A DNA stretch of 64,000 bases from a bacterium (GCA_963675755.2 CAXXMD010000001.1:326049-390048); one strand, 5' to 3'; shown: positions 1,982-64,000, counted from the stretch's first letter. Numbers and translations: made by a program. Notes: generated from the sequence alone by a model not told the origin.

Positions 1982-1982
1982 C

Positions 1983-4498: not shown

Positions 4499-4529
4499 AC
4501 TCTTGAATAAATATCCCTATTGCTAATAT

Positions 4530-6545: not shown

Positions 6546-6551
6546 CGAGTC

Positions 6552-12315
<5,764 letters not shown>

Positions 12316-42509: not shown

Positions 42510-43895
42510 TTAGCGTATCAATGTCATTTTACGCATTGTTTTAATATTGTCTACATGTAATTCGTAATAATAGATTCCGCTTGCTACGGGGGATTGGTTT
42601 ACATCACAACCGTTCCACTCGATCTGGTATGAACCGGCGGCTTGCGTTTGATGGACCAGCGTATTGATTCGCTGTCCCATATTGTTGTAAACAGATAACT
42701 TTACTTTTGATTGCTGCGATATGGAATAACAGATTGTGGTGGTCGGATTAAAGGGGTTTGGATAGTTTTGAGATAACTCAAATGAACATGGAGTTTGGGT
42801 CTGTTGCTGTATCCCGGTAGGATCTCCCTCAATGGCTTCCAGAATGACCAGGTCTTTGGTTCCATTGCCTATTACATCAGATTCCCAGATGATAGTATCC
42901 TGTTGTACATCAAATTTTTGCACATGACCGTCACCACCCCATTCTTTCATAAAAGGCACCCATATCACATCCAGCGAGTTGTCATAATACAGGCGTTGCA
43001 GGTTGGGGCCAACCAGAATGGGATTTGATGCATCATGTAAAACCATACCGGTATTGGCATCGTAAGAACAGATATAACCATTCACACCATCGCCCCAGGC
43101 GGGGCAATAGCCTTTGCCATCAGCAGTAACCACAATATCTCCGGGAGTAAAGGGAGTGGTATGTTCAGCGTTATGCCAGCCAAAATCCACCGTATCCACA
43201 GCGGCGGGGGTGTTTTGATTGTCATCCGTATGCAGGTCAATAATCACCACAGAACCGGAAACCGTTGCATAATCACCGGTGCATACCACATTCAATCGCC
43301 CATCCGGAGCTATTGCAACATCCTGTGCATTGACAGGTGTGTTTACCGTATGGATTACCATGTCACTTTCCGAGTCAATTATGGAAACAGAAGATTGTTC
43401 ATATGGCATTCCCCAGCCGGCGTAACCGGTATTGGTCACAAATGCCTTGCCGTCTTTACAAAGAATCCCTTCAGGTGCTACACCCACTGATATCTCACCC
43501 GTTACCGAGCCGGTTGAGAGATCGATAATAGAAACCGTGTTGGCAACATAGTTTGTAACATAGGCTTTATCTGAATCCGGGAACGCGATAGCCCAGGGAT
43601 TACTGCCCTCAGCTAGTGCAATGGTTTGGATGACCTGGTTATTTTGCTGCGGATCAATAACCATAATATCATCAGTGCCTGAATTGACGATATAGATTAA
43701 ATCATTAAATGCCACTAGCTGATTTGGCATTTGTCCGGTTGTCACAATATTAGACTTGATACTGAAATCATCCATTGACATGATTGATACCGTTTCAGCG
43801 GATTCGTTCAGCGTGTAAAGTGTTCTCGGAATGTCTGCAAATGCGCAAGCGTAAATTAACAGAACCATAAACAACAGACATCTTTTGGGATACAT
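42510..43895 (-). CDS. YncE/BtuG-like beta-propeller with FlgD-Ig C-terminal domain; putative cobalamin-capture protein
   Basis: YVTN repeats (KAYVTNY..VSIIDL, VGVAPEG); NYPNPFNP tail; directly downstream of the riboswitch-controlled TonB receptor. Confidence 0.75.
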   Translation of the reverse strand: MYPKRCLLFMVLLIYACAFADIPRTLYTLNESAETVSIMSMDDFSIKSNIVTTGQMPNQLVAFNDLIYIVNSGTDDIMVIDPQQNNQVIQTIALAEGSNPWAIAFPDSDKAYVTNYVANTVSIIDLSTGSVTGEISVGVAPEGILCKDGKAFVTNTGYAGWGMPYEQSSVSIIDSESDMVIHTVNTPVNAQDVAIAPDGRLNVVCTGDYATVSGSVVIIDLHTDDNQNTPAAVDTVDFGWHNAEHTTPFTPGDIVVTADGKGYCPAWGDGVNGYICSYDANTGMVLHDASNPILVGPNLQRLYYDNSLDVIWVPFMKEWGGDGHVQKFDVQQDTIIWESDVIGNGTKDLVILEAIEGDPTGIQQQTQTPCSFELSQNYPNPFNPTTTICYSISQQSKVKLSVYNNMGQRINTLVHQTQAAGSYQIEWNGCDVNQSPVASGIYYYELHVDNIKTMRKMTLIR

Positions 43896-48793: not shown

Positions 48794-49353
48794 TAACGAT
48801 TATTTCAGGTTTGCCCCGTTCAGGTACCTCATTGATGATGCAAATGCTTGAAAAAGGGGGGATGGACGTATTAACCGATGGAAAGCGCCAGGCAGATGAG
48901 AATAATCAGCGCGGTTACTATGAATATGAAAAAGTAAAAAGTCTTCGTACAGATAATAAATGGTTAATAGACCATGATGGCAAAGCAGTCAAGATCATTG
49001 CCCAGTTGCTGCCGTATGTACCCACAAAAGTGGAATTTAAAGTTATATATATGGTACGCCCCATTGAAGAGGTGATCCGGTCACAAAGGAAAATGATTAA
49101 AAACCTTGGTAATCAGGGCGCAAGCCTGAGTGATGCGGATTTGACCAAAGTTTTTTCGGTGCAAACCAACCGTGTACAAACCTGGTTAGCGATGAACAAG
49201 GTTGATTGTTTGTTTATGTTTTTTCCGGAAATTCTACATAATCCACTTGAAAAAGCCAATGAAATTTGTTCATTCCTGGGTACAAAATTAAATACGGATT
49301 TGATGGCCACAGTTGTGGATAAACGCTTGTGGCACGAAAAAAGTCAGTTGTAA
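48790..49353 (+). CDS. PAPS-dependent sulfotransferase-domain protein
   Basis: 5'-PSB loop SGLPRSGTSLMM; 3'-PB motif YMVRPIEEVIRS; ATGA overlap with the upstream gene. Confidence 0.85.
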   Translation: MITIISGLPRSGTSLMMQMLEKGGMDVLTDGKRQADENNQRGYYEYEKVKSLRTDNKWLIDHDGKAVKIIAQLLPYVPTKVEFKVIYMVRPIEEVIRSQRKMIKNLGNQGASLSDADLTKVFSVQTNRVQTWLAMNKVDCLFMFFPEILHNPLEKANEICSFLGTKLNTDLMATVVDKRLWHEKSQL

Positions 49354-49475
49354 AATTATCAATCATGAAATAGTGTAGTTTGGTCTTAATTAGTCAAGTT
49401 GCTTGTAGGTAAAAGCATCCTGAATTACCAAATTGTCTGCAATGATAGTATCCAAAAATTATAAAGAGGGTTGTA

Positions 49476-50669
49476 ATGAAATTTGATAAAAATAAAAGTC
49501 TGGAAAAACGATTGTTTGGGTATGCTGCGCTTGCCGGTACTGTGATAACTGCAGGGCCAACAGCACAGGCTGCTGTCATTAAAACGGACCCTGCTGACCA
49601 AACTGGATTAAAGACGATTAATGTTGACTTTAATAATGATCTTACAAATGATCTCATTATTAGGGCCGGTCAACAATCTGGAGTTGCAAGGTCAGACATT
49701 CGGATAGAAAATGCCACCGGTCAGGTATTGGGACAAACTTATTCAACTAGTTACACATGGAACTGGTATGCATCTCCATTGAATCTTAATAGTACAATAG
49801 GGGCTTCAAAAGCATTTCCCCCAGAATGGAAAGCACAGTTGTTAATGTATTCTAATCGCGGCTTTTGGTCCGGTGTGAACGAGAAATATGTAGGTGTTAA
49901 ATTCAAAATAGGCGAAAATACCCATTATGGATGGATAAAAATTTCTTGTTCTACTTATGATGCCTCTTCATCTTATTATACTTTATCTCTTTATGAATAT
50001 GCTTACGAGAGCACTCCCGGTGAGTCAATTAAAGCAGGCGCCGATGCCTCATTGCCTGTAGAACTTTCTTCTTTTACAGCAGTACCTGAGAATGGAGCAG
50101 TGAATTTGAGCTGGACCACCCAGAACGAGATCGATAACCTGGGCTTTATGCTCGAACGTCGATTAAAAGAAGAGTCCGACTGGGAGACCATTGCCAGTTA
50201 TAAAACCCATGTTGAACTTGCTGGGCAGGGTAACAAGAACAGTCCCACGAATTACCATTTTGCCGACAGTAACGTCTTCTCCGGCAACACCTATATTTAT
50301 CGCTTGTCAGATTTAGATGTGAACGGTGAAATTCATTCCAAACAAGAGATACAGGTAAAAGCATCCGATACGGTTGTGCCTGAATCAACAGAACTGTCTT
50401 CCGCTTTTCCTAATCCCTTCAACCCTTTCAATCCCGGTACCAGGGTACAGTATCAACTCGAGACGGATGTAAAAGTGACATTAAGCGTTGTTGACATTAC
50501 CGGGAGGACTGTCCGAACAATTGTCAATGAGAACCAGCCGGCGGGTCGTTATGAAATTGCATGGGACGGTAAAGATAGTTACGGAAATTCAACTCCCAGT
50601 GGAGTATATCTGCTGGTACTTAAAGCCGGCAACCTCACCAAGACCCACAAAGTGACGCGTCTGCGTTAA
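49476..50669 (+). CDS. Secreted HYGW-domain protein with Ig-like and FlgD-Ig C-terminal domains (paralog 1)
   Basis: Leader KRLFGYAALAG..AQA; YVGVKF..THYGWI..YAYE; LPVELSSF; PNPFNPFNP tail. Confidence 0.8.
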   Translation: MKFDKNKSLEKRLFGYAALAGTVITAGPTAQAAVIKTDPADQTGLKTINVDFNNDLTNDLIIRAGQQSGVARSDIRIENATGQVLGQTYSTSYTWNWYASPLNLNSTIGASKAFPPEWKAQLLMYSNRGFWSGVNEKYVGVKFKIGENTHYGWIKISCSTYDASSSYYTLSLYEYAYESTPGESIKAGADASLPVELSSFTAVPENGAVNLSWTTQNEIDNLGFMLERRLKEESDWETIASYKTHVELAGQGNKNSPTNYHFADSNVFSGNTYIYRLSDLDVNGEIHSKQEIQVKASDTVVPESTELSSAFPNPFNPFNPGTRVQYQLETDVKVTLSVVDITGRTVRTIVNENQPAGRYEIAWDGKDSYGNSTPSGVYLLVLKAGNLTKTHKVTRLR

Positions 50670-50689
50670 TTCATTCTGCAAAATTATGC

Positions 50690-50727
50690 CATGACCAGGA
50701 TAGGTAGAGTCCTGGTCATGTTTTTTT
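50690..50727 (+). terminator. Intrinsic terminator
   Basis: CATGACCAGGA...TCCTGGTCATG followed by a T-run. Confidence 0.75.
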
Positions 50728-50765
50728 CTCCAATTAATTATTGTGAATTATATTCAATAAAATCC

Positions 50766-50794
50766 TTGCATTATAATGTAATAATTTCTATAAT
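50766..50794 (+). promoter_or_regulatory. Sigma70-like promoter of paralog 2
   Basis: TTGCAT-N17-TATAAT; AAGGAGG RBS before ATG 50836. Confidence 0.6.
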
Positions 50795-50835
50795 ATTAGA
50801 TACATATGAAATGAAAATTTCAAGGAGGGAGTTCG

Positions 50836-51996
50836 ATGAAACCGCAATTGGATAAACGGATTGCAGGGTATTCTGCATTGGCAGCAGCAATGTTAACAGG
50901 AGCTCAGGGTAAGGCTGAAGTATTAAAATATAATTCAGGTGCAGTTTTAAATGAAGGCGGGGATTTTGTTAATATCGATTTTGATCAGGTAGGCGGAGAT
51001 GGTAATGATATTATGATTTCTTGCACTACATATCCCGGTCCTATTTTTTATGCACAGCATTTTGATTATGCCAATAGCGGTGCATTTTTAGGAAATATGG
51101 CAGGTTCTTCAATTATGTTTCCATTTGCATTGGAAGCAAGCAATAGTATTCCTGTTACCGGTGCCTGGAATTTAAATACATATAACACTTATGCTCAGGG
51201 CACTCTGAATGTTTTCAGTGGTTTTGCCGGCCATTGGAATAATAAATTTAACAAGTACATGGGTGTCAGATTTGATATCAGCGGTGCAACACATTACGGA
51301 TGGGTAAAAATGTCTTGTAACGGCCCTACCCTTACCATACATCAATTCGCTTATGAGACCAATGCTGATGCCGGTATTGATGCACCTTTGCCGGTAAAGT
51401 TGTCTTTATTCACTGCAGAGCCTGAAAAAGGTGGTATCAGTATTTCATGGACCACCCAAAGTGAAGAAGACAACCTCGGGTTTACTTTGGAACGTCGTCT
51501 TGATTCCGAAACCGAATGGACTCCCATTGCCAGTTATAAAACCGATGACGCATTAAAAGGGCAGGGTACCAGCACAAATGAAACAGAGTATCAATTCCAG
51601 GATAATGATGTTTTTGTCGGTAATACCTATCATTACCGTTTAACGGATGTTGATGTGAACGGCTATTCCAATTTTAGCAAAGTAATCCAGGTCGATGCCA
51701 CAAATCTGGTTGCACCCAGTGAAACTGAACTGATTTCTGCATATCCAAATCCTTTTAATCCGGGCACTACAATACAATACAAGCTTGAATCAGATCATTT
51801 TGTATCGCTGAGCGTGGTTGACATAACCGGACGAACGGTTCGTACGTTAGTCAAAGAAAACCAGCAAGCGGGCCAATATTCTTTTGCATGGGATGGAAAC
51901 GATAATACTGGCAATTCATCTCCCAGTGGTATTTATATGCTGGTGCTCAAGGCCGGCAATCTAGTCCGTACTCAAAAAGTGACTCGTTTAAGATAG
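50836..51996 (+). CDS. Secreted HYGW-domain protein with Ig-like and FlgD-Ig C-terminal domains (paralog 2)
   Basis: Leader KRIAGYSALAAA..GKA; YMGVRF..THYGWV..FAYE; LPVKLSLF; YPNPFNP tail. Confidence 0.8.
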   Translation: MKPQLDKRIAGYSALAAAMLTGAQGKAEVLKYNSGAVLNEGGDFVNIDFDQVGGDGNDIMISCTTYPGPIFYAQHFDYANSGAFLGNMAGSSIMFPFALEASNSIPVTGAWNLNTYNTYAQGTLNVFSGFAGHWNNKFNKYMGVRFDISGATHYGWVKMSCNGPTLTIHQFAYETNADAGIDAPLPVKLSLFTAEPEKGGISISWTTQSEEDNLGFTLERRLDSETEWTPIASYKTDDALKGQGTSTNETEYQFQDNDVFVGNTYHYRLTDVDVNGYSNFSKVIQVDATNLVAPSETELISAYPNPFNPGTTIQYKLESDHFVSLSVVDITGRTVRTLVKENQQAGQYSFAWDGNDNTGNSSPSGIYMLVLKAGNLVRTQKVTRLR

Positions 51997-52002
51997 TTTT
52001 TT

Positions 52003-52031
52003 AAAAAAGCCCAATTTTTTGGGCTTTTTTT
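52003..52031. terminator. Intrinsic terminator
   Basis: AAAAAAGCCCAA-TTTT-TTGGGCTTTTTT. Confidence 0.8.
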
Positions 52032-52175
52032 GTATATTCAGTATTGCATGTTTGTAAAATATTTTTTACGTTGAACAATATTCATATGATATGATCTGAA
52101 ATACTAGAATAGCAGTATAACTCTTATATCGCAATAAATAATTTAACCCGTCAATTTATTGAAGTTGAGCTATAT

Positions 52176-55073
52176 ATGCCAGATAGACCGTCATATCTCA
52201 GACCATTTATATTGAACATTCTTTTCCCCGCTTTGTTGACAATAATCCTTTTTGTTGTATCTATATTTGTAATTATTATACCTTCTCTTGAAAAAAACCT
52301 TCTTGATAAAAAGCGTGAAATGATCTGTGAACTTTCCAATTCTGCATGGAGTTTGTTGGAATCTTTTCATCAGCAACAGTTAAATAATGAAATTACATTT
52401 GAAAAAGCACAAGAAGAAGCCATTGCCGCTGTTAGTGCTTTGCGCTATGGTGAAGAAAATAAGGACTATTTTTGGATAACGGATATGCGTCCCTATATGG
52501 TTGTGCATCCGTATCGTAGTGATCTTGACGGTAAAGACCTGAATAATTTTAAAGATCCGAATGGAAAAAAGCTGTTTGTAGAATTTGCACGCACGGTTAA
52601 AGAACAGGGCAGCGGTTATATAGATTACTGGTGGCAGTGGAAAGATGATTCTACACGCATAGTTCCTAAATTATCATATGTACGTGGTTTTGAACCCTGG
52701 GATTGGATCGTTGGGACTGGTATTTATATAGAAGATGTAAGAATTGAAATAAACAGAATTACCAGACGATTAATTCATCTTTCTTTTTCCATTATTGTTA
52801 TTATATCGCTCATTCTTGCATATATTGCACGTCAGACATTCAGAATTGAAAAACAGAAACAGATTGCTGAATTTGAACTTGCAGAATCTAAAGAAAAATA
52901 TAAATCTCTTGTTGAAGCTTCGACCGAAGGTACACTGATGGTTATGGAGTTTCGGATCATTTTTGCAAATAGTACAATACAAAACTTGCTTGGATTTAGT
53001 GAAAAGGAATTGACAGATTTTTCACTGGATGAATTGGTAAAATTGGGTAAAAATGATGATGATTTATTCTCTTCTTTGTTGACCAAAGATGAACTTGAAG
53101 AACAATATGAAGCCGGTTTTTTTAAAAAAGATGGCTCAATGCTTGAAACGTTGATCTCTATTTCACATATAGATATTTTTGGCAAAGAAGGATTTATTAT
53201 AGTAGCCAAAGATATTAGCAGCCATAAAAAAATTCAGGAAGAACTGGGTGAAAGCAAACAAAAGTTTCAGGTGCTGACTGAAACAATCAATATGGGGGTT
53301 TTCAGGGTTTTATTGGGAAAAAAACCTCATTTTACTGAATTAAATTCTGCAGGCACCCGCATATTGGGAATTAATGAGCAGGATATCACTACTATATCTT
53401 TAACTGAATTTTTCCAGGATCCTAATGAAGCTGAAATATTTAGTAATACTTTATTAAATATGGGCAATATTAAAGAACGTGTTGTCAGTATTAAAAGACG
53501 AGATGGAAAATCAATTTATTTGTCAATCTCTGCAATTGTGATTAAAGACGATGATCATAATGAAAAATTTGTTGATGGAATTTTTGAGGACATCTCTGAA
53601 TTTAAAAAAACAGAAATGGTTCGGGAAGAGATAATATCCGAATTGAATACATCACTATTGTATCTGAATCAACCAGTTAAACATTTTGCACAATTTTATC
53701 CCAAAATTCCTATGCATCAATCCATACGGAATGCTGCGCTGGATATGAAAAAGAATCTGGCGAGTGCAGCTTTGGTTATTTCCGAAATGGGAGATGTTAT
53801 TGGAATTGTAACAATTGATGATTTGTGGAAGCGTGTGATATGTAATGAAAAAAAACTTTCTGATCCGGTTTTTGAGATCATGTCAGCACCTGTACAGACA
53901 ATTTCCGAAAATTCTCTTATCTTTGAAGCACTTTTGGTCATGCAGCAACGGTCTATAAGACATCTGCCACTTGCCGATATTAATGGCAATATTAACAGTA
54001 TGATCACAAACAAAGAAATAATCCAAATTCAACAATTCTCTACCGGATTGTTATTACATGAAATTCAGAATTGTAAAAATATTGAAGACCTGATTGATAA
54101 AAGTAAAACGCTACATGGTGTTGTTAAAAATTTAATTGAAAATGGAGTTCGGATTTCGACAATTACAAGGATTATCAGTTCATTTAGTGATGCTGTTTCT
54201 GTCAAGTGCATCGAGTTTGCTTTACAGTCGCAGGGGACGCCTCCATGTGATTTTGCATTTATTGTGATGGGCAGCCAGGGACGTGAAGAACAAACATTGT
54301 CTACAGATCAGGATAATATTATTATTTTTGAACAGACTGACCAACCCGTACAAGATTATTTTATTGGTCTTGCAGAAAAGATCAATACCTGGTTAGATCA
54401 GGCCGGATATCAATTCTGTAAGGGTGATGTGATGGCCAAAAACCCCAAGTGGTGTGCAAGTATAAATCAATGGAAACAGTATTTCAGCCATTGGATACAT
54501 GATGCAGATCCACAGGATTTGATTGATATTAGTATTTTCTTTGATTTTAGATTTTTATTTGGGAAACAAAAATTATCTAATGAATTACGTGATCATGTAT
54601 TAGAAACTTCAAAAGGTAAAGCCGCCTTTTTTAATCATTTGGCCAAGAATGCATTATTGGTTAAACCCCCATTAAATTTAATGGGGAATATTTCTACAAA
54701 ATCATCAGGGGATGAACAGATAGAGGGTTTTGATGTTAAACATGCATTGTTACCTATTGTTGATTTTTGCAGGATATATACATTACAGAATGGAATACGA
54801 GTAACGAATACTTTACAAAGATTGTCCGAATTAAAAGATAGAGAAGTAATTAATATTTCAACATTTGAAGAGATTGTTGAATGTTATGAATACCTGATGC
54901 TTCTCCGATTTAAACATCAGGTTAATGATTTGCAGAAAAATCGTATACCGGATAATATTATCAATCCTAAACGTCTTACACAAATTGAACAGCACACACT
55001 GAAAAAGATTTTCATACAAATAAATAGTTTCCAGAAAAAAATGAGTTATGATTTTACTGGTGTAGCATCTTAG
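52176..55073 (+). CDS. Membrane sensor: Cache, 2 PAS, CBS pair and DUF294 nucleotidyltransferase-like domain
   Basis: TM-LRYG..DYFWI..MVVHP..KDPNGK..KLSYVRGFEPWDWIVGTGIY-TM (sCache_2-like); PAS; CBS (IRHLP); MGSQGREEQTLSTDQDN, CKGDVMAKNPKW, IFFDFR. Confidence 0.85.
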   Translation: MPDRPSYLRPFILNILFPALLTIILFVVSIFVIIIPSLEKNLLDKKREMICELSNSAWSLLESFHQQQLNNEITFEKAQEEAIAAVSALRYGEENKDYFWITDMRPYMVVHPYRSDLDGKDLNNFKDPNGKKLFVEFARTVKEQGSGYIDYWWQWKDDSTRIVPKLSYVRGFEPWDWIVGTGIYIEDVRIEINRITRRLIHLSFSIIVIISLILAYIARQTFRIEKQKQIAEFELAESKEKYKSLVEASTEGTLMVMEFRIIFANSTIQNLLGFSEKELTDFSLDELVKLGKNDDDLFSSLLTKDELEEQYEAGFFKKDGSMLETLISISHIDIFGKEGFIIVAKDISSHKKIQEELGESKQKFQVLTETINMGVFRVLLGKKPHFTELNSAGTRILGINEQDITTISLTEFFQDPNEAEIFSNTLLNMGNIKERVVSIKRRDGKSIYLSISAIVIKDDDHNEKFVDGIFEDISEFKKTEMVREEIISELNTSLLYLNQPVKHFAQFYPKIPMHQSIRNAALDMKKNLASAALVISEMGDVIGIVTIDDLWKRVICNEKKLSDPVFEIMSAPVQTISENSLIFEALLVMQQRSIRHLPLADINGNINSMITNKEIIQIQQFSTGLLLHEIQNCKNIEDLIDKSKTLHGVVKNLIENGVRISTITRIISSFSDAVSVKCIEFALQSQGTPPCDFAFIVMGSQGREEQTLSTDQDNIIIFEQTDQPVQDYFIGLAEKINTWLDQAGYQFCKGDVMAKNPKWCASINQWKQYFSHWIHDADPQDLIDISIFFDFRFLFGKQKLSNELRDHVLETSKGKAAFFNHLAKNALLVKPPLNLMGNISTKSSGDEQIEGFDVKHALLPIVDFCRIYTLQNGIRVTNTLQRLSELKDREVINISTFEEIVECYEYLMLLRFKHQVNDLQKNRIPDNIINPKRLTQIEQHTLKKIFIQINSFQKKMSYDFTGVAS

Positions 55074-55894
55074 TATATTTGGTTTTCATTCCAATATTTT
55101 AGAAATTGATTGCTGGAAATATGTGGTTTTTCATTATGACATTCAAAAATGAATGGACCATTAAAAGGTAATGATTTAAGAGCATCAGTAACTTTGGACC
55201 AGTTCACTGTTCCATTTCCGATAGTCTGGTGTTCATCATATTCACCATTATTGTCGTGCAAATGGATGCATGAAAATTTGTGTCCCAGGTTTTGAATATA
55301 GGACATTGAATTGTTTCCAATATGTGCATGCCCTATATCAAAACATATTTTTAATAAAGGTGAATTGATGTTATCAAAGATAATATTAAAATCATCAATA
55401 TTATCGCCCAGATGCTCTATTTCTGAACCGGAATGCATTTTTACTGCATTTTCAATGGCTATTGTAATATTATATTTTTGGCTATAGTACAAGAGTTCTT
55501 TGAGACTTTTTATGCAATTCATCAAGGCCTTTTGTCGGAATGATTTCATTGATGTATGACCTATGAAACTACCCAGATGCAATGTTATGTGTCGTAGATG
55601 TAGTTTATGACCAATTTCCAGGCAATTTACAAGGAATTGGATGTTTTTAGCTCGAATATAATCAAATTCATGGGCAATATTGATGGAAAAAGGCGGGTGA
55701 AAACTGAAATTGATATTTGATTCTAACGCAAGCTTGTTATACAAGGAGATTTTTTCATTAGTAAAAGTATACAATTGCAGATGTTTTGGATATAAATTGA
55801 TCTCCAGATGATTAAAGTGAAATTGGTTAGAATATTCAACTTCCTGTTGAATCGAGTTTTCATAAACGCTGAAACCCAGAATTGTTGGGGACAT
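55070..55894 (-). CDS. Sugar-phosphate isomerase/epimerase TIM-barrel (AP endonuclease 2 family)
   Basis: SFHPP, IAIEN, CFDIGHA, IHLHDN..DEH, FEC metal ligands. Confidence 0.8.
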   Translation of the reverse strand: MSPTILGFSVYENSIQQEVEYSNQFHFNHLEINLYPKHLQLYTFTNEKISLYNKLALESNINFSFHPPFSINIAHEFDYIRAKNIQFLVNCLEIGHKLHLRHITLHLGSFIGHTSMKSFRQKALMNCIKSLKELLYYSQKYNITIAIENAVKMHSGSEIEHLGDNIDDFNIIFDNINSPLLKICFDIGHAHIGNNSMSYIQNLGHKFSCIHLHDNNGEYDEHQTIGNGTVNWSKVTDALKSLPFNGPFIFECHNEKPHISSNQFLKYWNENQIY

Positions 55895-56071
55895 TATATT
55901 TCCTTTATCAAATCCGGTAGCTTTGAGAATAATTATGATACTTTAAAAATTTATAAATAGCAATAATTAACTAAATAGTATTCAATAATATAAAAAACTA
56001 AAAGAGGAAAGGGCTGATTTCAAATGTAGTATAACAGAATTTCTATACCACTTAATCAATGGAGGAAGGGA

Positions 56072-56770
56072 ATGGTAAATCCAAAATTCAAGGTGAATTT
56101 TTTCAAACCGCATACTGATCATGCCAAAGCCAATATGAGATTAATTATATTGTTAGCAATTATATGGGCTGTTTGTGTATTCGGATTTCAGTTTTTGTTG
56201 ATAGCATTTAATAAACCAGTTCCGGAAGCGAACTATCTAAAGTTTCAGCAGATTTGGCCCAATATACAGACCAGTCAGGCTGATGCTGATATTACAAGGA
56301 ATTTTACTAAAATTACCATGGCCGTATTGGGTAAGAATATTGCTTTAAAGGCTCCACACAAAGCTGTATTGGACGAAACATTGTCTACGTTGTTATTGAA
56401 ATTGTTACCAGAAGATCAAAAAGAAGCTTTTGCAAATGATCCACTAGAATACCTCAACAATAATGATCTTCATTCGGTGTTGGGTTTGGAAAAATCCGGA
56501 TTCGACAAATTGATGTATGATTTATTACCTACCTCGCTGGTTAAGGTTGACAACGCTGAATTGTCACCCCAAATTATCAAAGAATTGCCGGGTATAATGG
56601 AGCTCTATCTTGTCCATAACCGCAGTTTTCTAACGGATTCAAAATTCCTCGGATTTCCGTTTCATTATTGGTATACCGCACAGTTTTTACTCATCTTGTT
56701 TGTAGGCTTGTGCTGTATCTATGCGATCTATATTGATAGGCTCAATAAAAAATATGACTTTCCAGATTAA
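56072..56770 (+). CDS. DUF4212-type small symporter subunit with a large insertion
   Basis: N-terminal TM (IIWAVCVFGF) and C-terminal FLGFPFHYWYTAQ..YAIYIDRLNKKY; directly upstream of the SSS transporter. Confidence 0.7.
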   Translation: MVNPKFKVNFFKPHTDHAKANMRLIILLAIIWAVCVFGFQFLLIAFNKPVPEANYLKFQQIWPNIQTSQADADITRNFTKITMAVLGKNIALKAPHKAVLDETLSTLLLKLLPEDQKEAFANDPLEYLNNNDLHSVLGLEKSGFDKLMYDLLPTSLVKVDNAELSPQIIKELPGIMELYLVHNRSFLTDSKFLGFPFHYWYTAQFLLILFVGLCCIYAIYIDRLNKKYDFPD

Positions 56771-56790
56771 TCCAAACTTGGGAGAATCCA

Positions 56791-58470
56791 ATGCTGCGAA
56801 AAATATACTTTATGTTAATGATTTCATTATTTTCAGCTGTCTTGCCGGTTTGGGCTGAAGCTTCCAGCGCTGTGAAACTGGAAGGCGATTTTAAAGTTGG
56901 ACCTGCAATTATTCTTATAGTAATTTTAATTACATTTATTATGGTTGGTTTGTTTAACAGAGCCAAAGATACCTCAACCTATTGGGCCGCCGGCAGAAAA
57001 ATTTCCCCCGTTGGTGCCGGAATGGCCATTGCTTCAAACTGGATGAGTGCGGCTTCCTTTCTTGGAATGGCTGCAATTATGTATGGCTCTGGTTATCATG
57101 GTTTATCATACGTTGTTGGTTGGACAGGTGGTTATGTGTTACTGTTGATCCTGATGGCGGGGCAAATCAGACGATATGGTAAATATACTGCTGCTGACTT
57201 TATTGGAGACCGTTATTATTCAAAAGGGTTACGTGGATTTGGTGCCTGTCTTGCAATATTTATCTCTTTTTCATATTGTGTAGGCCAGTTTGCCGGTATT
57301 GGTATAATGTTTAAATGGGTTATGGGTATTGATTATACCTGGGCTGTTCTTATTGGTGCTTCGGTAGTGCTTGCATATACTCTGATTTCCGGTATGTTGG
57401 GTGTAACCAAAAATATGCAGATTCAATATGTGATCATTATCGTTTCCTTTATGATTCCGCTTTTTATTCTAACTTACAAATACGGTTATTTCTGGCTTGT
57501 ACCTCAGGTTGGTTACGGTAATGTAGTTTCAGATGTTGTAAATGGCCTGCCACCTGGAAAAGGGCTGTCAGTAATGGGGCATGATTTTGGGATCTTGCCT
57601 TCACCAGAATTTGCAATGCCCTGGGATCCTGCAACCGGGCAAACTGCATTTCAATGGATTGCAATTTGTTTTTCACTGATGATTGGCACGGCAGGTTTAC
57701 CTCATGTTATTCAACGTTTCTATGTTGTGCCCCGGGCCCGTGATGCTCGCTGGTCTGTTGTTTGGGGATTGTTTTTTATCTGTTTACTCTATTGGAGTGC
57801 CCCTGTATATTCTGCATTCGGAAAGATTTTATCATCAAACCCGGAAGTCGGTGCGTTAGCTAAAGACGCAATTGTTGTATATACGGCACAACTTGGTGCT
57901 GTTTTTCCATTAATTGTAGGTTTACTTGCCGCTGGTGCTATATCGGCTGCTTTTTCTACAGTTTCGGGATTGTTGGTTGCAGGTGCTTCGGCATTTTCTC
58001 ATGACCTTTATTATCGTGTGATTAATCCAAAAGCAACTGAACATACTCAGATGTTAATGGCCAGAATTGGTACAATTCTTATGGCTGTGTCTGTTGCAAT
58101 TGTCGCATTGTTAAAGCTGGGTTTAATAGCTCAATTGGTTGCAATTGCATTTTCTCTTGCCGGTTGTACTATTTTTCCTTTGTTTCTGTTAGGAATCTGG
58201 TGGAGTGGATCAAACAGAAAAGGCGCCTGGGCTGGATTAATTGCGGGTACTATAGTTTCACTTGTTGCAATTGTTAATTTTATTGTAAGCAAGTATGGTG
58301 GTCAGCTACCGGGGCAGGAAATGATCAGTTATTACCTGAATGCCTGGTATTTTGCATGGTTGGGTGCACCTTTGGCAATTATTACCAATATTGTAGTATC
58401 TTTATTAACAAAATCCAAAACTCCGGCAGAAATTGAACAGTTTCTTGCTGAAAATGTACATAATTATTAA
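56791..58470 (+). CDS. Sodium:solute symporter, cation/acetate symporter ActP-like
   Basis: GMAIASNWMSAASFLG, YGKYT, GTAGLPHVIQRF, AAFSTVSGLL, HDLYY, LGIWW. Confidence 0.88.
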   Translation: MLRKIYFMLMISLFSAVLPVWAEASSAVKLEGDFKVGPAIILIVILITFIMVGLFNRAKDTSTYWAAGRKISPVGAGMAIASNWMSAASFLGMAAIMYGSGYHGLSYVVGWTGGYVLLLILMAGQIRRYGKYTAADFIGDRYYSKGLRGFGACLAIFISFSYCVGQFAGIGIMFKWVMGIDYTWAVLIGASVVLAYTLISGMLGVTKNMQIQYVIIIVSFMIPLFILTYKYGYFWLVPQVGYGNVVSDVVNGLPPGKGLSVMGHDFGILPSPEFAMPWDPATGQTAFQWIAICFSLMIGTAGLPHVIQRFYVVPRARDARWSVVWGLFFICLLYWSAPVYSAFGKILSSNPEVGALAKDAIVVYTAQLGAVFPLIVGLLAAGAISAAFSTVSGLLVAGASAFSHDLYYRVINPKATEHTQMLMARIGTILMAVSVAIVALLKLGLIAQLVAIAFSLAGCTIFPLFLLGIWWSGSNRKGAWAGLIAGTIVSLVAIVNFIVSKYGGQLPGQEMISYYLNAWYFAWLGAPLAIITNIVVSLLTKSKTPAEIEQFLAENVHNY

Positions 58471-58573
58471 TTTAATTAATGATTTGTATTTGATGAATTT
58501 ATATATTGTAAAGTTGTCGATATAGTATAATATGTATTATGTTGAAAATATTGACCCCGTCAATGGAGGTAAA

Positions 58574-59785
58574 ATGAAAAAAATTTGGATAGCTCTGTTT
58601 TTTACAATGTGTTTCTCTTCAATTGTTATAGCACAATCGTCAGAGTTTGGAATTAAATTTACCGGTTTTGTTAAAACCGATGTCATGTTTGATTCCCGCC
58701 AGACGGTAACTGCAAGAGAGGGACATTTTTTGCTTTATCCTGCCGGTGAAGATCTGGATGTGAATGGAGAGGATGCGAATGCGCAACCTAATCTCAATAT
58801 GCTCGCGATACAAACCCGGCTCAAGGGGGCTATCACAGGTCCGGATGCATTTGGGGCCAAAACATCCGGTTTGATTGAGGCTGCATTTTTTGGTCATTCC
58901 AATACGGATGTTAATGGCTTTCGGTTACGGCATGCTTTTTTGACCCTGGCCTGGGAAAAAAATACACTTTTGGTTGGGCAATTTTGGCATCCTATGTTTG
59001 TGACGGGTTGTTTCCCCGGTACGGTTTCTTTCAATACCGGTGTTCCTTTTCAACCCTTTTCCCGTAATCCTCAGGTTCGCCTAACTCATACATCAGGAGC
59101 TGTTTCGCTTTTTGCTGCTGCTGTATCTCAAAGGGATTTTACCAGTTCAGGACCCGACGGGGCCGGATCTCAATATCTAAGAAATGCAGCTATTCCTAAT
59201 TTGCATGGGCAACTACAAATCAGTACGGATAAAGTTCTATTAGGTGCCGGTGTTGACTGGAAAATGTTAAAACCAAGATTGAAAACACCTCTTGATTATG
59301 TGTCTGATGAAACGGTTTCCGGTGTATCTGTGATGGGTTTTGCAAAATTTAAATTACCCAAAGCAGAATGGAAGGTATATGGTGTTTACGGACAAAATTT
59401 AACTGATATGGTTATGCTGGGTGGTTATGGTGTTAACAGTCTGGATGCTGCAACCGCTCAGGAAACCTATGTGCCTACGGATATTATGTCTGTCTGGACC
59501 GATTTTTCTACCGGTTCTACAATCGCTTATGGCTGTTTTGCCGCTTATACTCAAAATCTGGGTGCCGGTGAAGACATTAGCAGTTTTTGGGGAAGAGGTT
59601 CGAATATTGATAATGTATATCGAATTTCTCCTAGAATCATGTGGAATTCCGGTAAAACACGTTTCGCTGCCGAAGTTGAATATACCGCAGCCGCATACGG
59701 CACTGCTGACAACCAGGGCAAAGTTCAGGATGCTGAATATGTAAATAATTTGAGATTGTTATTAGCCGCTTATTATTTCTTTTAA
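58574..59785 (+). CDS. DcaP-like outer-membrane porin
   Basis: Signal peptide; GFVKTD, FRLRHAF, LLVGQFWHP, RNPQVR; C-terminal YYFF; ATG at 58574 follows GGAGG. Confidence 0.75.
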   Translation: MKKIWIALFFTMCFSSIVIAQSSEFGIKFTGFVKTDVMFDSRQTVTAREGHFLLYPAGEDLDVNGEDANAQPNLNMLAIQTRLKGAITGPDAFGAKTSGLIEAAFFGHSNTDVNGFRLRHAFLTLAWEKNTLLVGQFWHPMFVTGCFPGTVSFNTGVPFQPFSRNPQVRLTHTSGAVSLFAAAVSQRDFTSSGPDGAGSQYLRNAAIPNLHGQLQISTDKVLLGAGVDWKMLKPRLKTPLDYVSDETVSGVSVMGFAKFKLPKAEWKVYGVYGQNLTDMVMLGGYGVNSLDAATAQETYVPTDIMSVWTDFSTGSTIAYGCFAAYTQNLGAGEDISSFWGRGSNIDNVYRISPRIMWNSGKTRFAAEVEYTAAAYGTADNQGKVQDAEYVNNLRLLLAAYYFF

Positions 59786-59824
59786 TAAAAAAAGGTCCCC
59801 GAAAAACTTCGGGGACCTTTTTTT
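59786..59824. terminator. Bidirectional terminator
   Basis: A-run-GGTCCCCGAA...TTCGGGGACC-T-run between convergent genes. Confidence 0.85.
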
Positions 59825-61358
59825 AAAAACGATATCCCAGATCCGTATAAATACGGTGTCCAAACGTTATATCTCCCCATTCATACTCGTAATTCGTTGT
59901 TATATAAAATGATGCAGGCAATTCAATTTGTGTGTTAAATTGTAACCATTGACTGTTTCGTTTCAAGCCGGTATTGTGATACTCGTAATTATAACTGCCA
60001 TATCCCAAAGATATATAGTGTCCCTTTTTTAAATATTTACCTAACGTCACTGATGGGTGTATACCCCGGGTATATAAATTTGAGAATCCTGAAAAACGAA
60101 GTGATAATCTCATCCTTTTAATAAACAGATTGTTTTTATATAAACCCAATGAATATGATGTTGTGGTGTTTTCATCACTTTTTTTACGTAATCCGTAATT
60201 TCCAAAGAAGCGAGTGTCCTTTGTCCATTTGAAATTGATATTTCCACGTAAACCTTGTCTGAACGCATCATCAAAAAGACTGTCAGCCACGGATAAGAGT
60301 TCATAGGTGTAGTAATTTTTATAATTGTTATAAGAGAGACCGGCTGTTAGTTTTTCTGATATATTCATACTTGCATTTAAATACAGGTTGGACAAGCTTG
60401 CCGTTGACTGGGTTTTTTCTTTGCGCCAATTCCGGTTTATATCGAGTTCCATACGTTGATAAAAATACCATCGTTTGTAAGCGTTTATACTGCTTTGCAG
60501 GTAAACAAATTCTCTGCTCACAATAGAATCATGATATTCCCCGGCTGCTGCAAGTGTAACCTCATATTTTGTTCCAGTGAAATCACCTCTGTTATAATTA
60601 ATAAACGTACCATATTTTTGCAGTGAGGTTTGAAATGATGAATACTGCCATTGAGGTTGAGTACCGGCAAAAACTCCCAGTTTCAGGTTTTTGGATGTAT
60701 TGTATTGCAAATTTAATCCGTCAATGTACCCCAATCCACTAAATATATGTGAAATGATTCTGCCGACTTTGTAATTGAGTGTTGAATTGGGATTGTCATA
60801 GGAAAAGGATACTTCATACAAACGGTTACGCCATTCTGTCTCGGGTGTTCTGGCATTATAACGTCTGCTTCTTTGATTGTATCTGGATCGAAGTTTGATA
60901 TTCAGGTTATAATCGCGGTTCCATAATTGTTTGACTTTGAGTTTGAATCTCACGGCGGGTTGTTTGAAATCGTTATTATATGGCGAGATATCATTAAATT
61001 GATAGTGTTGAAAAACAAGATAGCCGCTGTATCTGGTGTTACTGATTTTTTTGTTTTCGGGCTTTTCAGGATTATCAATTCTTACCTGGTCCCCTTTGTT
61101 TAATTCTGTTGTATTTTCAAGAATGCGACACGTTGCAGAGTTTTTTGAAATATGAGTAATTTCTATTTTTGAAATTATTTCATCATTTTCAAAAGCGGAG
61201 AGGATATCTCCCAAAGCCAGTCCTTTTTCAGTACCCGCGTTTATTGTTATCTGTTCATTACTAATATTCTGTATCGTAGCATATTCCTGGGCAAATAGCC
61301 CAAGTGCTGTTACGAATATAAAAAGTAATATATGAATTTTATTAATCATCTTCAGCAT
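59823..61358 (-). CDS. Outer-membrane beta-barrel protein coupled to the multiheme cytochrome
   Basis: Signal peptide (start 61358 or 61349, overlapping the cytochrome 3' end); small N-terminal beta domain; alternating aromatic strands; terminal DLGYRF. Confidence 0.7.
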   Translation of the reverse strand: MLKMINKIHILLFIFVTALGLFAQEYATIQNISNEQITINAGTEKGLALGDILSAFENDEIISKIEITHISKNSATCRILENTTELNKGDQVRIDNPEKPENKKISNTRYSGYLVFQHYQFNDISPYNNDFKQPAVRFKLKVKQLWNRDYNLNIKLRSRYNQRSRRYNARTPETEWRNRLYEVSFSYDNPNSTLNYKVGRIISHIFSGLGYIDGLNLQYNTSKNLKLGVFAGTQPQWQYSSFQTSLQKYGTFINYNRGDFTGTKYEVTLAAAGEYHDSIVSREFVYLQSSINAYKRWYFYQRMELDINRNWRKEKTQSTASLSNLYLNASMNISEKLTAGLSYNNYKNYYTYELLSVADSLFDDAFRQGLRGNINFKWTKDTRFFGNYGLRKKSDENTTTSYSLGLYKNNLFIKRMRLSLRFSGFSNLYTRGIHPSVTLGKYLKKGHYISLGYGSYNYEYHNTGLKRNSQWLQFNTQIELPASFYITTNYEYEWGDITFGHRIYTDLGYRF

Positions 61359-64000
61359 ACCCCCTGGGGTGACATGCGTAACATGCAGAACTTTCATAAA
61401 CATATCCACTTTCATCGTCATGTTTATCATCCATCTTTGTTCTGGTATGTTCGTGACAATTAATGCATTCAAATTGTGAATAATCATTTGTAGCTACATG
61501 GCAATTGTTGCATGTATTCCATTCACCGGCATGTTTCCCTGAATAAATTGGAAAATATTGTCTGTCATGGTCCCAATTTGCTGGTCGCCATGCTGAAGTG
61601 TTGTGACAACTGTTGCAGGTTGTTGGGAAATGCGCTGCGCTGTGATTTGGATTATTGGTGCCAATATAATCTGACATATGACAGGAATAACAATCTGTGG
61701 GGGTATTATCGTATCCGCTGCTGTGACAATCTGAACAATCTGCGTTCAGATGAGCACCGGTCAGTGTGAAATTTGTTGATGTATGGTCAAAAAATGCCGG
61801 AATCCAACCATTAATGGAATGACAATCCAGGCACTCATGACTGAAATTATTGATGACGTGATTGGGATCCGTTACCGCTTCAAAATCCGCCTGATGACAG
61901 CTATAGCATTCGGTCGGAATATTGGTATATCCAGTAGAATGACAGTCGATACAGTTGACAGTGGTATGCGCGCCTTCCAATGGGAACAGTGTGGTTGCAT
62001 GATCAAACTGGGCTGGGGAAAATGCGCTCATACTGTGGCAATCCAGACATTCGTGACTGAAATTATTGGTGACGTGATTGGGGTCCGTAACGGATTCAAA
62101 GTCCGCTTGATGGCAGCTGAAACATTCAGTCGGAATGTTGGTATATCCTGTTGAATGACAGTCGATACAGTTGACCGTGGTATGCGCGCCTTCCAGCGGA
62201 AACAAGGTGGTTGCATGGTCAAACTGAGCAGGAGAAAAAGCACTCATACTGTGACAGTCCAGACACTCGTGACTGAAATTGTTGGTAACGTGATTGGGGT
62301 CCGTAACGGATTCAAAATCAGTTTGGTGGCAGCTGTAACATTCAATTGGAATATTGGTATATCCTGTACTGTGACAATCAATGCAATTGGCTGATGTATG
62401 CGCACCTTCCAGCGGAAACAGGGTGGTTGCGTGATCAAACTGAGCTGGCGAAAAGGCACTCATGCTGTGACAATCAAGACATTCGTGGCTGAAATTGTTA
62501 GTGACGTGATTGGGATCCGAAACAGATTCAAAATCGGTCTGATGACAACTGAAACATTCAGTTGGTATGTTGGTATATCCTGTACTGTGACAATCGATAC
62601 AGTTGACCGTGGTATGCGCGCCTTCCAGCGGAAACAGGGTGGTTGCGTGATCAAATTGCGCGGGAGAAAAAGCACTCATGCTGTGACAATCCGTACATTC
62701 ATGGCTGAAATTGTTGGTGACGTGATTGGGATCCGAAACAGATTCAAAATCGGTCTGATGACAACTGAAACATTCAGTTGGTATGTTGGTATATCCTGTA
62801 CTGTGACAATCGATACAGTTGACCGTGGTATGCGCGCCTTCCAGCGGAAACAGGGTGGTTGCGTGGTCAAACTGTGCGGGAGAAAAAGCACTCATGCTGT
62901 GACAATCCGTACATTCATGGCTGAAATTGTTGGTGACGTGATTGGGATCAGTTACCGCTTCAAAATCAGCTTGATGACAGCTGTAACATTCAGTCGGAAT
63001 ATTGATATATCCTGTGGAATGACAATCGATACAATTTGCAGTTGTATGAGCACCTTCCAGTGGGAACAGAGTGGATGCATGATCAAACTGGGCAGGAGAA
63101 AAGGCATTCATGCTGTGGCAGTCCAAACACTCGTGACTGAAATTGTTGGTGACATGATTGGGATCGGTCACGGATTCAAAATCGGTTTGGTGACAACTGT
63201 AGCATTTGGTTGGAATGTTGGTATATCCTGTACTGTGGCAATCGATACAATTTGCTATTGTATGCGCACCTTCCAACGGGAACAGGGTGGTTGCGTGATC
63301 AAACTGCGCTGGAGAAAAGGCATTCATGCTGTGGCAGTCCGAACATTCGTGATTGAAATTGTTGGTGACGTGATTGGGTTCCGTAACAGATTCAAAATCA
63401 GTTTGATGACAGCTGTAACATTCAGTGGGTATATTTGTATATCCTATACTGTGACAGTCGATACAGTTGGCGGATGTATGAGCACCTTCCAGCGGAAACA
63501 AGGTGGTTGCATGGTCAAACTGAGCGGGAGAAAAAGCACTCATGCTGTGACAGTCCGAACACTCGTGGCTGAAATTGTTGGTGACGTGATTGGGGTCCGT
63601 AACAGATTCGAAATCCGCTTGATGACAGCTGTAACATTCTGTTGGAATATTGGTATAGCCTATGGAATGACAATCGATACAATTAACTGATGTATGAGCT
63701 CCTTCCAGTGGGAACAGGGTGGTTGCATGGTCAAACTGAGCGGGAGAAAAGACATTCATACTGTGACAGTCCTGACACTCGTAGCTGAAATTATTGGTAA
63801 CATGATTGGGATCCGTAACGGATTCAAAATCCGCTTGATGACAGCTGTAACATTCAGTGGGAATATTGGTATATCCTGTACTATGACAATCAATACAATT
63901 GGCTGATGTATGAGCACCTTCCAGCGGGAACAGCGTTGTCGCATGATCAAACTGGGCAGGCGAAAAAGCGTTCATGCTGTGACAATCCGTACACTCGTGG
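61342..64000 (-). CDS. Giant multiheme c-type cytochrome, 5' end outside the window
   Basis: 36 CxxCH motifs counted in the listed ORF plus CTDCH in-frame upstream of 63975; frame open to the window end. Confidence 0.93.
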   Translation of the reverse strand, partial: HECTDCHSMNAFSPAQFDHATTLFPLEGAHTSANCIDCHSTGYTNIPTECYSCHQADFESVTDPNHVTNNFSYECQDCHSMNVFSPAQFDHATTLFPLEGAHTSVNCIDCHSIGYTNIPTECYSCHQADFESVTDPNHVTNNFSHECSDCHSMSAFSPAQFDHATTLFPLEGAHTSANCIDCHSIGYTNIPTECYSCHQTDFESVTEPNHVTNNFNHECSDCHSMNAFSPAQFDHATTLFPLEGAHTIANCIDCHSTGYTNIPTKCYSCHQTDFESVTDPNHVTNNFSHECLDCHSMNAFSPAQFDHASTLFPLEGAHTTANCIDCHSTGYINIPTECYSCHQADFEAVTDPNHVTNNFSHECTDCHSMSAFSPAQFDHATTLFPLEGAHTTVNCIDCHSTGYTNIPTECFSCHQTDFESVSDPNHVTNNFSHECTDCHSMSAFSPAQFDHATTLFPLEGAHTTVNCIDCHSTGYTNIPTECFSCHQTDFESVSDPNHVTNNFSHECLDCHSMSAFSPAQFDHATTLFPLEGAHTSANCIDCHSTGYTNIPIECYSCHQTDFESVTDPNHVTNNFSHECLDCHSMSAFSPAQFDHATTLFPLEGAHTTVNCIDCHSTGYTNIPTECFSCHQADFESVTDPNHVTNNFSHECLDCHSMSAFSPAQFDHATTLFPLEGAHTTVNCIDCHSTGYTNIPTECYSCHQADFEAVTDPNHVINNFSHECLDCHSINGWIPAFFDHTSTNFTLTGAHLNADCSDCHSSGYDNTPTDCYSCHMSDYIGTNNPNHSAAHFPTTCNSCHNTSAWRPANWDHDRQYFPIYSGKHAGEWNTCNNCHVATNDYSQFECINCHEHTRTKMDDKHDDESGYVYESSACYACHPRGYAEDD
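61816..64000 (-). repeat. 216-bp (72-aa) tandem repeat, at least 10 copies, 3 hemes each
   Basis: Unit MxAFSPAQFDHATTLFPLEGAHTxxNCIDCHSTGYTNIPTECxSCHQxDFExVxDPNHVTNNFSHECxDCHS. Confidence 0.95.

Follow-up and report, generated by a model that had tools for sequence, protein, structure and literature searches.

Here we describe P0001, a gene at positions 52176 to 55073 of a 64,000-nucleotide stretch of bacterial DNA (GCA_963675755.2 CAXXMD010000001.1:326049-390048; the whole stretch is called the window below, and all positions are counted from its first letter), which encodes a membrane receptor with a DUF294 nucleotidyltransferase (NTase) as its output. It was found that the protein joins a periplasmic Cache domain, whose ligand pocket is complete for C2/C3 carboxylates, to an NTase of the modelled GlnE/DrrA fold with intact catalytic residues, and that its gene is kept in a conserved company of genes, above all a metal phosphoesterase and a sodium:solute symporter (SSS). 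From these observations we infer a ligand, a transfer to protein, an eraser and a target: with about an even chance of being right, in our estimate, the module would be a ligand-gated switch which acts on carboxylate uptake or assimilation by adding and removing a nucleotide tag.

Domain architecture of P0001

The gene and its parts were located as follows.

52176..55073, plus strand: sensor-nucleotidyltransferase gene P0001, 965 amino acids, an intact open frame with domain matches
52203..52289, plus strand: transmembrane (TM) helix 1, about residues 10-38 (hydropathy windows above 1.6)
52305..52763, plus strand: periplasmic sCache_2 domain, residues 44-196 (PF17200, E 5e-39)
52764..52835, plus strand: TM helix 2, about residues 197-220 (hydropathy)
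52881..53600, plus strand: two cytoplasmic PAS domains, about residues 236-357 and 386-475 (TIGR00229 twice, the first at residues 240-357; PAS_9, PAS)
53682..54041, plus strand: CBS pair, about residues 503-622 (PF00571, two stretches)
54108..54515, plus strand: DUF294 nucleotidyltransferase core, residues 645-780 (PF03445, E 1.4e-47)
54270-54317, plus strand: catalytic motif G699...D711-x-D713, within the DUF294 core
54624..55055, plus strand: DUF294_C helical domain, residues 817-960 (PF10335, E 9.5e-39)

Pfam, NCBIfam and hydropathy bear out, at these coordinates, the order TM, Cache, TM, PAS, PAS, CBS, CBS, NTase that the original prediction had read from the DNA alone, with DUF294_C standing last in the Pfam and hydropathy order. 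Both output models exceed their curated Pfam cut-offs (161.5 against 21 bits for PF03445, and 132.9 against 22.5 for PF10335). The CBS pair, which matches the CBS-pair structures 2ef7, 4fry and 4o9k in a sequence search of the PDB, lies before residue 645 and immediately precedes the NTase. The claimed lack of a kinase, GGDEF or MCP output was confirmed as well, since none of these, nor an EAL domain, was detected in P0001 by Pfam or NCBIfam down to an E value of 0.1. Pfam gave no cNMP_binding match either; two TM segments around the Cache domain are present instead. The Kyte-Doolittle windows above 1.6 extend over about residues 7-43 and 195-224, flanking the Cache domain, and a marginal hydrophobic stretch at residues 528-547 lies inside the CBS pair. 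The N-terminal tail is probably cytoplasmic because it carries Arg4 and Arg9, according to the positive-inside rule.

A terminator-like hairpin was found at 52003-52030, 3' of the gene upstream of P0001. A scan for sigma-70-type promoters was uninformative (36 sites, 33.5 expected), and an Rfam search of positions 49000-62000 at E values up to 0.1 returned just two sub-threshold small RNA matches near 59.7 kb, far under the gathering scores.

The output nucleotidyltransferase

The catalytic motif GSQGREEQTLSTDQDN occupies residues 699-714, starting with G699 and ending with D711-Q-D713-N, and the motif residues are invariant both in 24 full-length homologues and in 72 NTase regions. Across the NTase alignments G699, S700, G702, R703, E705, D711, D713, N714 and D790 do not vary; D790 is likely the third catalytic carboxylate. 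Since the catalytic residues are invariant, the NTase of P0001 looks active.

By sequence no solved relative of the NTase region was found in the PDB, neither with P0001 nor with a 72-sequence profile of residues 625-965; these searches returned just designed helical bundles and chance rows. An AlphaFold2 model of residues 625-965 reached a pLDDT of 94.4 and a pTM of 0.91, and its best structural matches were the following.

GlnE N-terminal domain, 1v4a: Foldseek TM-score 0.71; VIA-align Z 27.3 over 302 residues, root-mean-square deviation 2.8
GlnE C-terminal domain, 3k7d: Foldseek TM-score 0.66; VIA-align Z 26.0 over 297 residues
DrrA with Rab8a, 6yx5_B: Foldseek TM-score 0.64; VIA-align Z 25.8 over 293 residues

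These alignments span DUF294 together with DUF294_C (model range 1-340). Beyond the three, the Foldseek TM-scores do not exceed about 0.34, and the lower VIA-align rows belong to a DrrA N-terminal fragment (Z 12.5), aminoglycoside NTases (at most 9.9), MntA/HEPN pairs (about 9) and Hailong HalB (7.3). The known members of the GlnE/DrrA fold group attach adenosine monophosphate (AMP) to protein tyrosines or take it off them. P0001 shares with GlnE and with the AMPylation domain of DrrA/SidM the two-domain fold of about 300 residues and the G-x(n)-D-x-D motif, whereas the identity in the structural alignments is 12% and the regulatory domains differ. The family models missed their cut-offs on P0001: GlnD_UR_UTase of Pfam gave E 0.089 and 13 bits (cut-off 21), and the GlnE models of NCBIfam gave 14-16 bits (cut-offs above 600). 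The GlnD/GlnE-like motif noticed earlier in this DNA is intact and invariant, and according to the model it belongs to an output region of GlnE/DrrA fold.

The sensor pocket

In the PDB search the Cache domain matched the sensor domains of Adeh_3718 (4k08, E 2.6e-37) and PscD (5g4y, E 3.5e-31), and in NCBIfam this part of P0001 matched the MctS model with E 3e-28. As given in the sections of PMC5062169 on these proteins, PscD binds glycolate, acetate, propionate and pyruvate, its ligand contacts are Y90, W92, H103, F126, Y143, W145 and K156, and Adeh_3718 was crystallised with acetate. In the sequence alignment to 5g4y, for which chain index and residue number were taken to differ by 9, as fixed by the DYFWIND strand and Ala138, all seven contacts are identical in P0001 (Y98, W100, H111, F134, Y151, W153 and K165), and the seven are invariant in the alignment of 24 full-length homologues. 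The suggestion of a short-carboxylate type of Cache domain thus gained a complete C2/C3-carboxylate pocket, as far as the sequence tells, and binding of a C2/C3 monocarboxylate is a well-founded prediction.

The sCache_2 chemoreceptors PscD, McpP and Adeh_3718 resemble P0001 in these contacts, but their output is an MCP signalling domain while that of P0001 is an NTase, and the ligand of P0001 is a predicted one. The two-component systems MctS/MctR and CrbS/CrbR are similar to P0001 in coupling a monocarboxylate sensor to an SSS transporter; they differ in that the P0001 protein has neither kinase nor response regulator.

Phosphoesterase partners of the receptor

The neighbourhood of the receptor was surveyed in the window, 12 GTDB loci and 75 metagenome loci, which together hold 88 Cache-NTase genes. 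A scan of genome contigs with the single protein had given 19 loci, seven of which (L014-L020) share the Cache domain only; with these, L042, L085, L091 and L098, where no gene with both Cache and NTase was called, were dropped, eleven loci in all. Open reading frames beside the Cache-NTase genes were called, labelled by phmmer seeds and checked with Pfam, and a metal phosphoesterase was counted as partner if it was fused to the Cache-NTase gene or lay at most two genes away.

All 88 genes: partner in 69 (Metallophos 51, AP_endonuc_2 8, N-terminal PHP 8, separate PHP 1, N-terminal RNase_T 1); none in 19
The 44 complete genes flanked on either side by 1 kb or more: partner in 35 (Metallophos 24, AP_endonuc_2 8, PHP 2, RNase_T 1); none in 9

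Ten of the 19 partner-less genes sit at contig ends. Pfam confirmed 16 Metallophos neighbours, the separate PHP, the N-terminal PHP of L048, L050, L053, L060 and L093 and of the database proteins P0064 and P0068, and the N-terminal RNase_T of L086. The fused PHP of L037, L059 and L095 was called by phmmer alone, and the neighbours at L037, L061, L069 and L075, which are loci without partner or at contig ends, had no Pfam match at E values up to 1e-5. Because the fused PHP and RNase_T domains precede TM1, they should share the cytoplasmic side of the membrane with the NTase.

On the NTase tree (quick maximum likelihood, unrooted, with support from the Shimodaira-Hasegawa-like approximate likelihood-ratio test only) the partner type changes 12 times; the minimum is 4, the mean after shuffling is 24.5 and none of 200 shuffles was as low. 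The partner type is clustered on the tree, yet it has switched.

No further family recurs in more than 16 loci, and no DNA-binding domain recurs generally in the module in this 88-locus survey. A sigma-54 response-regulator family stands beside the sensor in 9 related loci, so that transcription would be left to a separate system. Furthermore, four loci (L021, L027, L028, L039) have beside the Cache-NTase gene a second sCache protein of 480-597 amino acids without NTase, which suggests a pair of sensors for the same class of ligand in each locus; the sigma-54 response regulators of L021 and L039 were confirmed by Pfam, and L021 also has a Gpr1/Fun34/YaaH channel. In L035 two Cache-NTase-like genes (332-2167, minus strand, and 4414-6561, plus strand) flank one SSS, with no phosphoesterase within two genes.

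The Endo IV-like partner in the window

55070..55894, minus strand: endonuclease IV (Endo IV)-like TIM-barrel protein of family AP_endonuc_2, 274 amino acids, the proposed eraser (PF01261, E 1e-31)

This gene is convergent with the sensor gene and overlaps its end by 4 nucleotides, and its product scores 110.8 bits with PF01261 (cut-off 31.1). In all eight loci having an AP_endonuc_2 gene (the window, the KSB1 locus L013 and six metagenome loci) it is directly downstream and convergent, and the eight occupy three distinct positions on the NTase tree. The partners are 32-44% identical to the window copy, and eleven His, Asp or Glu residues are invariant in the eight sequences, among them H66, H106, E148, D186, H189, H211, D220, H222 and E251. 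Six of these (H66, H106, E148, H211, D220 and H222) align with the Endo IV chain 2x7v, and of the six H66, H106, D220 and H222 have no counterpart in tagatose epimerases. Endo IV has nine His, Asp or Glu ligands at a three-metal site, to which the nine named residues may correspond. The motif HDNxGxxDxH aligns with IHLNDSK...DRH of 2x7v, falls in a gap of the tagatose epimerases and is common to MJ1311, which is also the nearest PDB chain (E 2.4e-34 with a profile). Table 1 of PMC2770678 lists MJ1311 as a predicted Endo IV homologue of M. jannaschii. The best NCBIfam match, the CbiR phosphodiesterase of cobamide remodelling, reaches 62 bits and stays under its cut-off of 105, and the nfo model gives 38 bits and does not reach its cut-off of 129.65. 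A complex prediction of the NTase region with the Endo IV-like protein scored 0.00, giving no verdict either way.

On account of its conserved position and its similarity to Endo IV and MJ1311, the product may be read as a phosphodiesterase, the local counterpart of the Metallophos, PHP and RNase_T partners. It could instead be an unrelated sugar isomerase or epimerase which merely adjoins the sensor, in which case this member would have no dedicated eraser. AP_endonuc_2 is a broad family, with tagatose and psicose epimerases scoring next after MJ1311, the window is rich in sugar-degrading genes, and the gene stands on the opposite strand. We regard this as distinctly unlikely: partners of such identity keep one position and orientation in 8/8 loci from three places of the tree, no other phosphoesterase type is present within two genes in any of the eight, and the invariant motif is one of Endo IV and MJ1311, not of epimerases.

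Transporter, small subunit and outer-membrane channel

56072..56770, plus strand: small transporter subunit DUF4212/TIGR03647, 232 amino acids (PF13937, TIGR03647)
56791..58470, plus strand: VC_2705-family sodium:solute symporter, 559 amino acids (TIGR03648, 494.1 bits, cut-off 320.75)
58532..59785, plus strand: outer-membrane channel P0121, 417 amino acids, DcaP-like (signal-peptide-like start, C-terminal YYFF)

The DUF4212 protein and the symporter had been recognised before as neighbours of P0001, and both are real; the phosphoesterase and the porin had been overlooked. The symporter is the sole copy in the genome above the TIGR03648 cut-off. An SSS homologue is present in 50/88 loci, and where at least 5 kb is available on both sides, in 26 of 29, within four genes in 24 of those 26; the expected synteny of the homologues with SSS transporters is thus observed. 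Three kinds of SSS occur, namely VC_2705 with the long DUF4212, ActP, and an MctC/ActP-like kind of 630-650 residues below all cut-offs, the latter two being accompanied by DUF485 small subunits, and the family name marks each of the three as a monocarboxylate carrier. The gene order varies across loci and the gene set is retained.

The DUF4212 subunit has 232 amino acids where about 80-90 are usual, its two TM helices (hydrophobic segments 18-48 and 199-225 by hydropathy) being separated by an insert of about 150 residues. PF13937 and TIGR03647 both cover residues 186-230 only, and because of this insert the TIGR03647 match (46.9 bits, cut-off 26.05) is confined to model positions 31-75. The long form was found in 19 related loci, always with a VC_2705-type symporter. 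Since Lys/Arg-rich tails stand at both ends, the insert is predicted to be periplasmic and would therefore be beyond the reach of a cytoplasmic NTase; as an NTase target it was rejected on this predicted topology. A periplasmic contact of the insert with the Cache domain is conceivable.

P0121 homologues are present in 32/88 loci. P0121 itself has no Pfam match; its ESM Atlas neighbours score 0.99 and carry PF19577 DcaP on 13-55% of their members, which is a lead only. On the other strand, 59823-61487 (minus) encodes a protein of 554 amino acids which has no Pfam or NCBIfam match, ends with LGYRF and is possibly another outer-membrane beta-barrel.

Distribution of the module

Among the matches listed by a word-indexed search there are 120 full-length homologues, 41-60% identical and with the same Pfam families, a few of them with an added PHP. 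Among their source names are Ignavibacteriae, Bacteroidetes, Calditrichaeota, Phycisphaerae, Aminicenantes, Sumerlaeia and Melioribacteraceae. Judged by source names, the carriers of the architecture belong for the most part to uncultured lineages: KSB1, Ignavibacteria, Bacteroidales, Calditrichota, Phycisphaerae and Aminicenantes. A pattern scan gave at least 533 relatives in JGI metagenomes. The closest named locus, L013, is in a metagenome-assembled genome of candidate division KSB1 (57% identity).

The host genome has exactly one DUF294 gene and one VC_2705-type SSS, side by side. The sensor gene was found in 11/41 genomes ranging from the same genus to the same order, which are kin to one another: seven have both genes, four the sensor alone, one (79% complete) the SSS alone and 29 neither. 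With these queries a complete genome of the same genus (G001, 100% complete) gave neither the sensor nor a VC_2705-type symporter; within the genus the module is therefore an accessory one.

No published study of the membrane-form architecture was found by full-text searches of the literature, supplements being outside these searches, in agreement with the original prediction that this signalling mode is poorly described.

Soluble relatives

DUF294/COG2905 proteins have stood in genome annotations for more than 20 years. The soluble ones, e.g. PP_0354/PP_0353 of Pseudomonas putida KT2440 and Pflu5625, consist of cNMP_binding, CBS pair, DUF294 and DUF294_C, with an adjacent RNase_T-type exonuclease. 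They are like P0001 in the CBS-DUF294-DUF294_C output, in the pairing with a phosphoesterase and in the link to an acetate-type SSS. They differ in that their cytoplasmic cNMP-binding input is replaced in P0001 by TM-sCache_2-TM-PAS-PAS, that is by an input from outside, that their RNase_T partner has its place taken by an Endo IV-like TIM barrel, and that the P0001 module includes an outer-membrane channel.

A tblastn search of plasmids with the NTase region gave 63 records at less than 60% identity, the plasmid-borne members being 25-35% identical over this region. In 3/3 annotated plasmid records examined, the soluble DUF294 gene is paired with a 3'-5' exonuclease gene.

Vibrio pelagius plasmid (L100): DUF294, then 'exonuclease domain-containing protein'
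Hymenobacter DG25B plasmid (L101): '3'-5' exonuclease', then DUF294
Paracoccus AK26 plasmid: acs, DUF485, cation/acetate symporter, DUF294, hypothetical, response regulator, 3'-5' exonuclease

In the passage of Price et al. on these genes, DUF4212 and its SSS are cofit with a neighbouring COG2905 gene, and the authors guess that the COG2905 protein is needed if the symporter is to be expressed (10.1101/072470). The relevant portions of three reports (10.64898/2026.09.07.749794; PMC9927547; PMC5715377) count soluble relatives among the acetate regulon of Pseudomonas; in the last of the three Pflu5625 of P. fluorescens is placed in the CrbS/R regulon. The authors of the deletion study of soluble homologues suggest, in the part that concerns them, a modification of protein (10.64898/2026.09.07.749794; PMC9927547).

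Proposed mechanism and alternatives

In the proposed mechanism P0001 would be a one-component receptor of the inner membrane, whose periplasmic sCache_2 domain would bind a C2/C3 monocarboxylate (acetate, glycolate, propionate, pyruvate or lactate), a solute of the same class as that presumably imported by the adjacent porin and Na+/solute symporter. The signal would travel via TM2 and the two PAS domains to the NTase, into which the CBS pair would also feed, probably by reading an adenine nucleotide; sensing of adenylate status is what membership of the CBS family suggests. The GlnE/DrrA-type NTase would then most likely move a nucleoside monophosphate (NMP) from a nucleoside triphosphate (NTP) to a hydroxyl on a protein of the cytoplasm, the metal phosphodiesterase encoded by the convergent Endo IV-like gene would remove the NMP, and this pair of writer and eraser would tune carboxylate uptake or assimilation after translation.

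A protein is favoured as the acceptor because the sole full-length fold relatives are protein AMPylases, and we consider the chances of this step roughly balanced. The fusion of PHP or RNase_T in front of TM1, together with the repeated replacement of the partner fold, argues that NTase and phosphoesterase act on the same bond. GlnD offers the analogy: its NTase and HD domains transfer an NMP to a hydroxyl and release 5'-NMP by hydrolysis, and it likewise unites an NTase with a metal-dependent phosphohydrolase in one signalling unit, PHP or RNase_T being fused to relatives of P0001 in a comparable manner. P0001 differs from it in having no HD or ACT domains, the removing enzyme being a separate gene here and its family changing between lineages. 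By this analogy, NMP transfer to a hydroxyl with hydrolytic release of 5'-NMP would be the simplest chemistry.

Several points weigh against such a switch. Nucleic acids or nucleotides, not protein-bound NMP, are the substrates for which all four partner families are chiefly known, RNase_T and Endo IV being 3'-end nucleases. Lying on the other strand, the Endo IV-like gene is not co-transcribed with the sensor. Nine of the 44 well-flanked genes have no phosphoesterase within two genes, 3/29 large loci (L069, L074, L089) have no SSS, and as kinship links the loci, the counts do not represent independent events. The L100 and L101 pairs lie within loci for the degradation of pectin/alginate and arabinan that have no SSS in the vicinity, hence the soluble DUF294-exonuclease pair is not tied to acetate permeases everywhere. 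No substrate or biochemical test of any DUF294 protein was found in the literature. Deletion of Pflu5625 had a negligible effect on acetate in the part of the report devoted to it (PMC5715377), and deletion of soluble homologues led, in the portions of the reports that describe it, to defects that were moderate on propionate and pyruvate and absent on acetate or succinate, a mild phenotype (10.64898/2026.09.07.749794; PMC9927547).

The main rival is that the NTase, on sensing carboxylate, makes a free nucleotide or short oligonucleotide, which acts on the transporter or on metabolism and which the phosphoesterase degrades. A sensor, PAS domains and an enzyme with a fused or adjacent phosphodiesterase are the usual layout of second-messenger systems (cf. 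Cache-PAS-GGDEF-EAL, and the oligo-dA of Hailong HalB). Each of the four partner families has members that cleave nucleotides or oligonucleotides: in the PDB search the chains closest to the PHP partner are of the Cv1693/RNase AM type (2yb1, 3e0f and the 5'-3' exoribonuclease 7ug9), one partner is an RNase_T fusion, and the Metallophos partner gives weak Dbr1 matches (E about 1e-3). HalB, although it is among the fold matches, is a weak one (Z 7.3 against 26-27 for GlnE/DrrA, whose known substrates are proteins); one genomic copy beside one transporter suits a switch that acts locally better than a signal that diffuses, and no conserved receptor gene recurs across loci. In our judgement this explanation is rather unlikely, and somewhat more so its specific form, in which a novel nucleotide or oligonucleotide signal, destroyed by exonuclease-type partners, would directly gate the carboxylate transporter as a housekeeping counterpart of Hailong HalB/HalA.

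Within the proposed protein-tagging switch, the original prediction had placed the nucleotide on the neighbouring SSS transporter or the DUF4212 subunit. The SSS is the commonest conserved neighbour, present in 51 of 89 loci, and, besides the sensor and the phosphoesterase, the only conserved candidate for a target that is accessible from the cytoplasm; moreover the gene set is kept while its order changes. The long DUF4212 insert is, however, predicted to be periplasmic, the small subunit of other loci belongs to DUF485 so that no single small subunit is common to all, three different SSS subfamilies are involved, and some sensor/NTase-phosphoesterase pairs have no transporter nearby. The symporter is thus a candidate, and we give this choice of substrate a low probability.

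Addition of nucleotides to the 3'-OH of RNA or DNA with trimming by the partner, by which a transcript or tRNA connected with the use of carboxylates would be controlled, is very unlikely: although RNase_T, PHP and Endo IV, like some Metallophos enzymes, act elsewhere as 3'-5' nucleases, and the guess of Price et al. on symporter expression would suit it (10.1101/072470), no CCA-adding enzyme or poly(A) polymerase is among the fold matches listed by Foldseek and VIA-align, no Rfam element or conserved RNA was found beside the genes (49000-62000), and the enzyme is tethered to the membrane.

Wider window

Positions 1-44000 of the window carry genes for the utilisation of polysaccharides and sugar acids: glycoside hydrolases (GH) of family GH2 (two), a GH106 rhamnosidase, GH95, an arabinofuranosidase, BNR proteins, enolase-superfamily enzymes, a GntP permease and an HpcH aldolase. 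The module is likewise accompanied by rhamnosidase, sulfatase and BNR genes in the KSB1 locus L013. Upstream of P0001, 49476-50669 and 50836-51996 (both plus strand) encode paralogous proteins of about 390 amino acids with an FlgD Ig-like domain, the second of which also carries a type IX secretion C-terminal sorting domain; more FlgD_ig proteins are encoded at 42510-43895 and 30255-31844. A multihaem cytochrome c of 877 amino acids, with cytochrome c7/c3, NapC/NirT and MtrC/MtrF-like matches, is encoded at 61342-63975 (minus strand).

Significance

The parent DUF294 kind is known, and the membrane-bound, Cache-gated protein with an Endo IV-like partner is a new form of it. Three features absent from the soluble form are thereby added to the family: an external ligand that can be predicted, partners that form a fixed set, and natural fusions which show which enzymes cooperate. 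If the proposed switch is true, it would signal across the membrane in a way that does without phosphorylation, methylation or a cyclic nucleotide, and it would give its hosts control over the uptake of the short-chain acids which dominate anaerobic sediments and guts.

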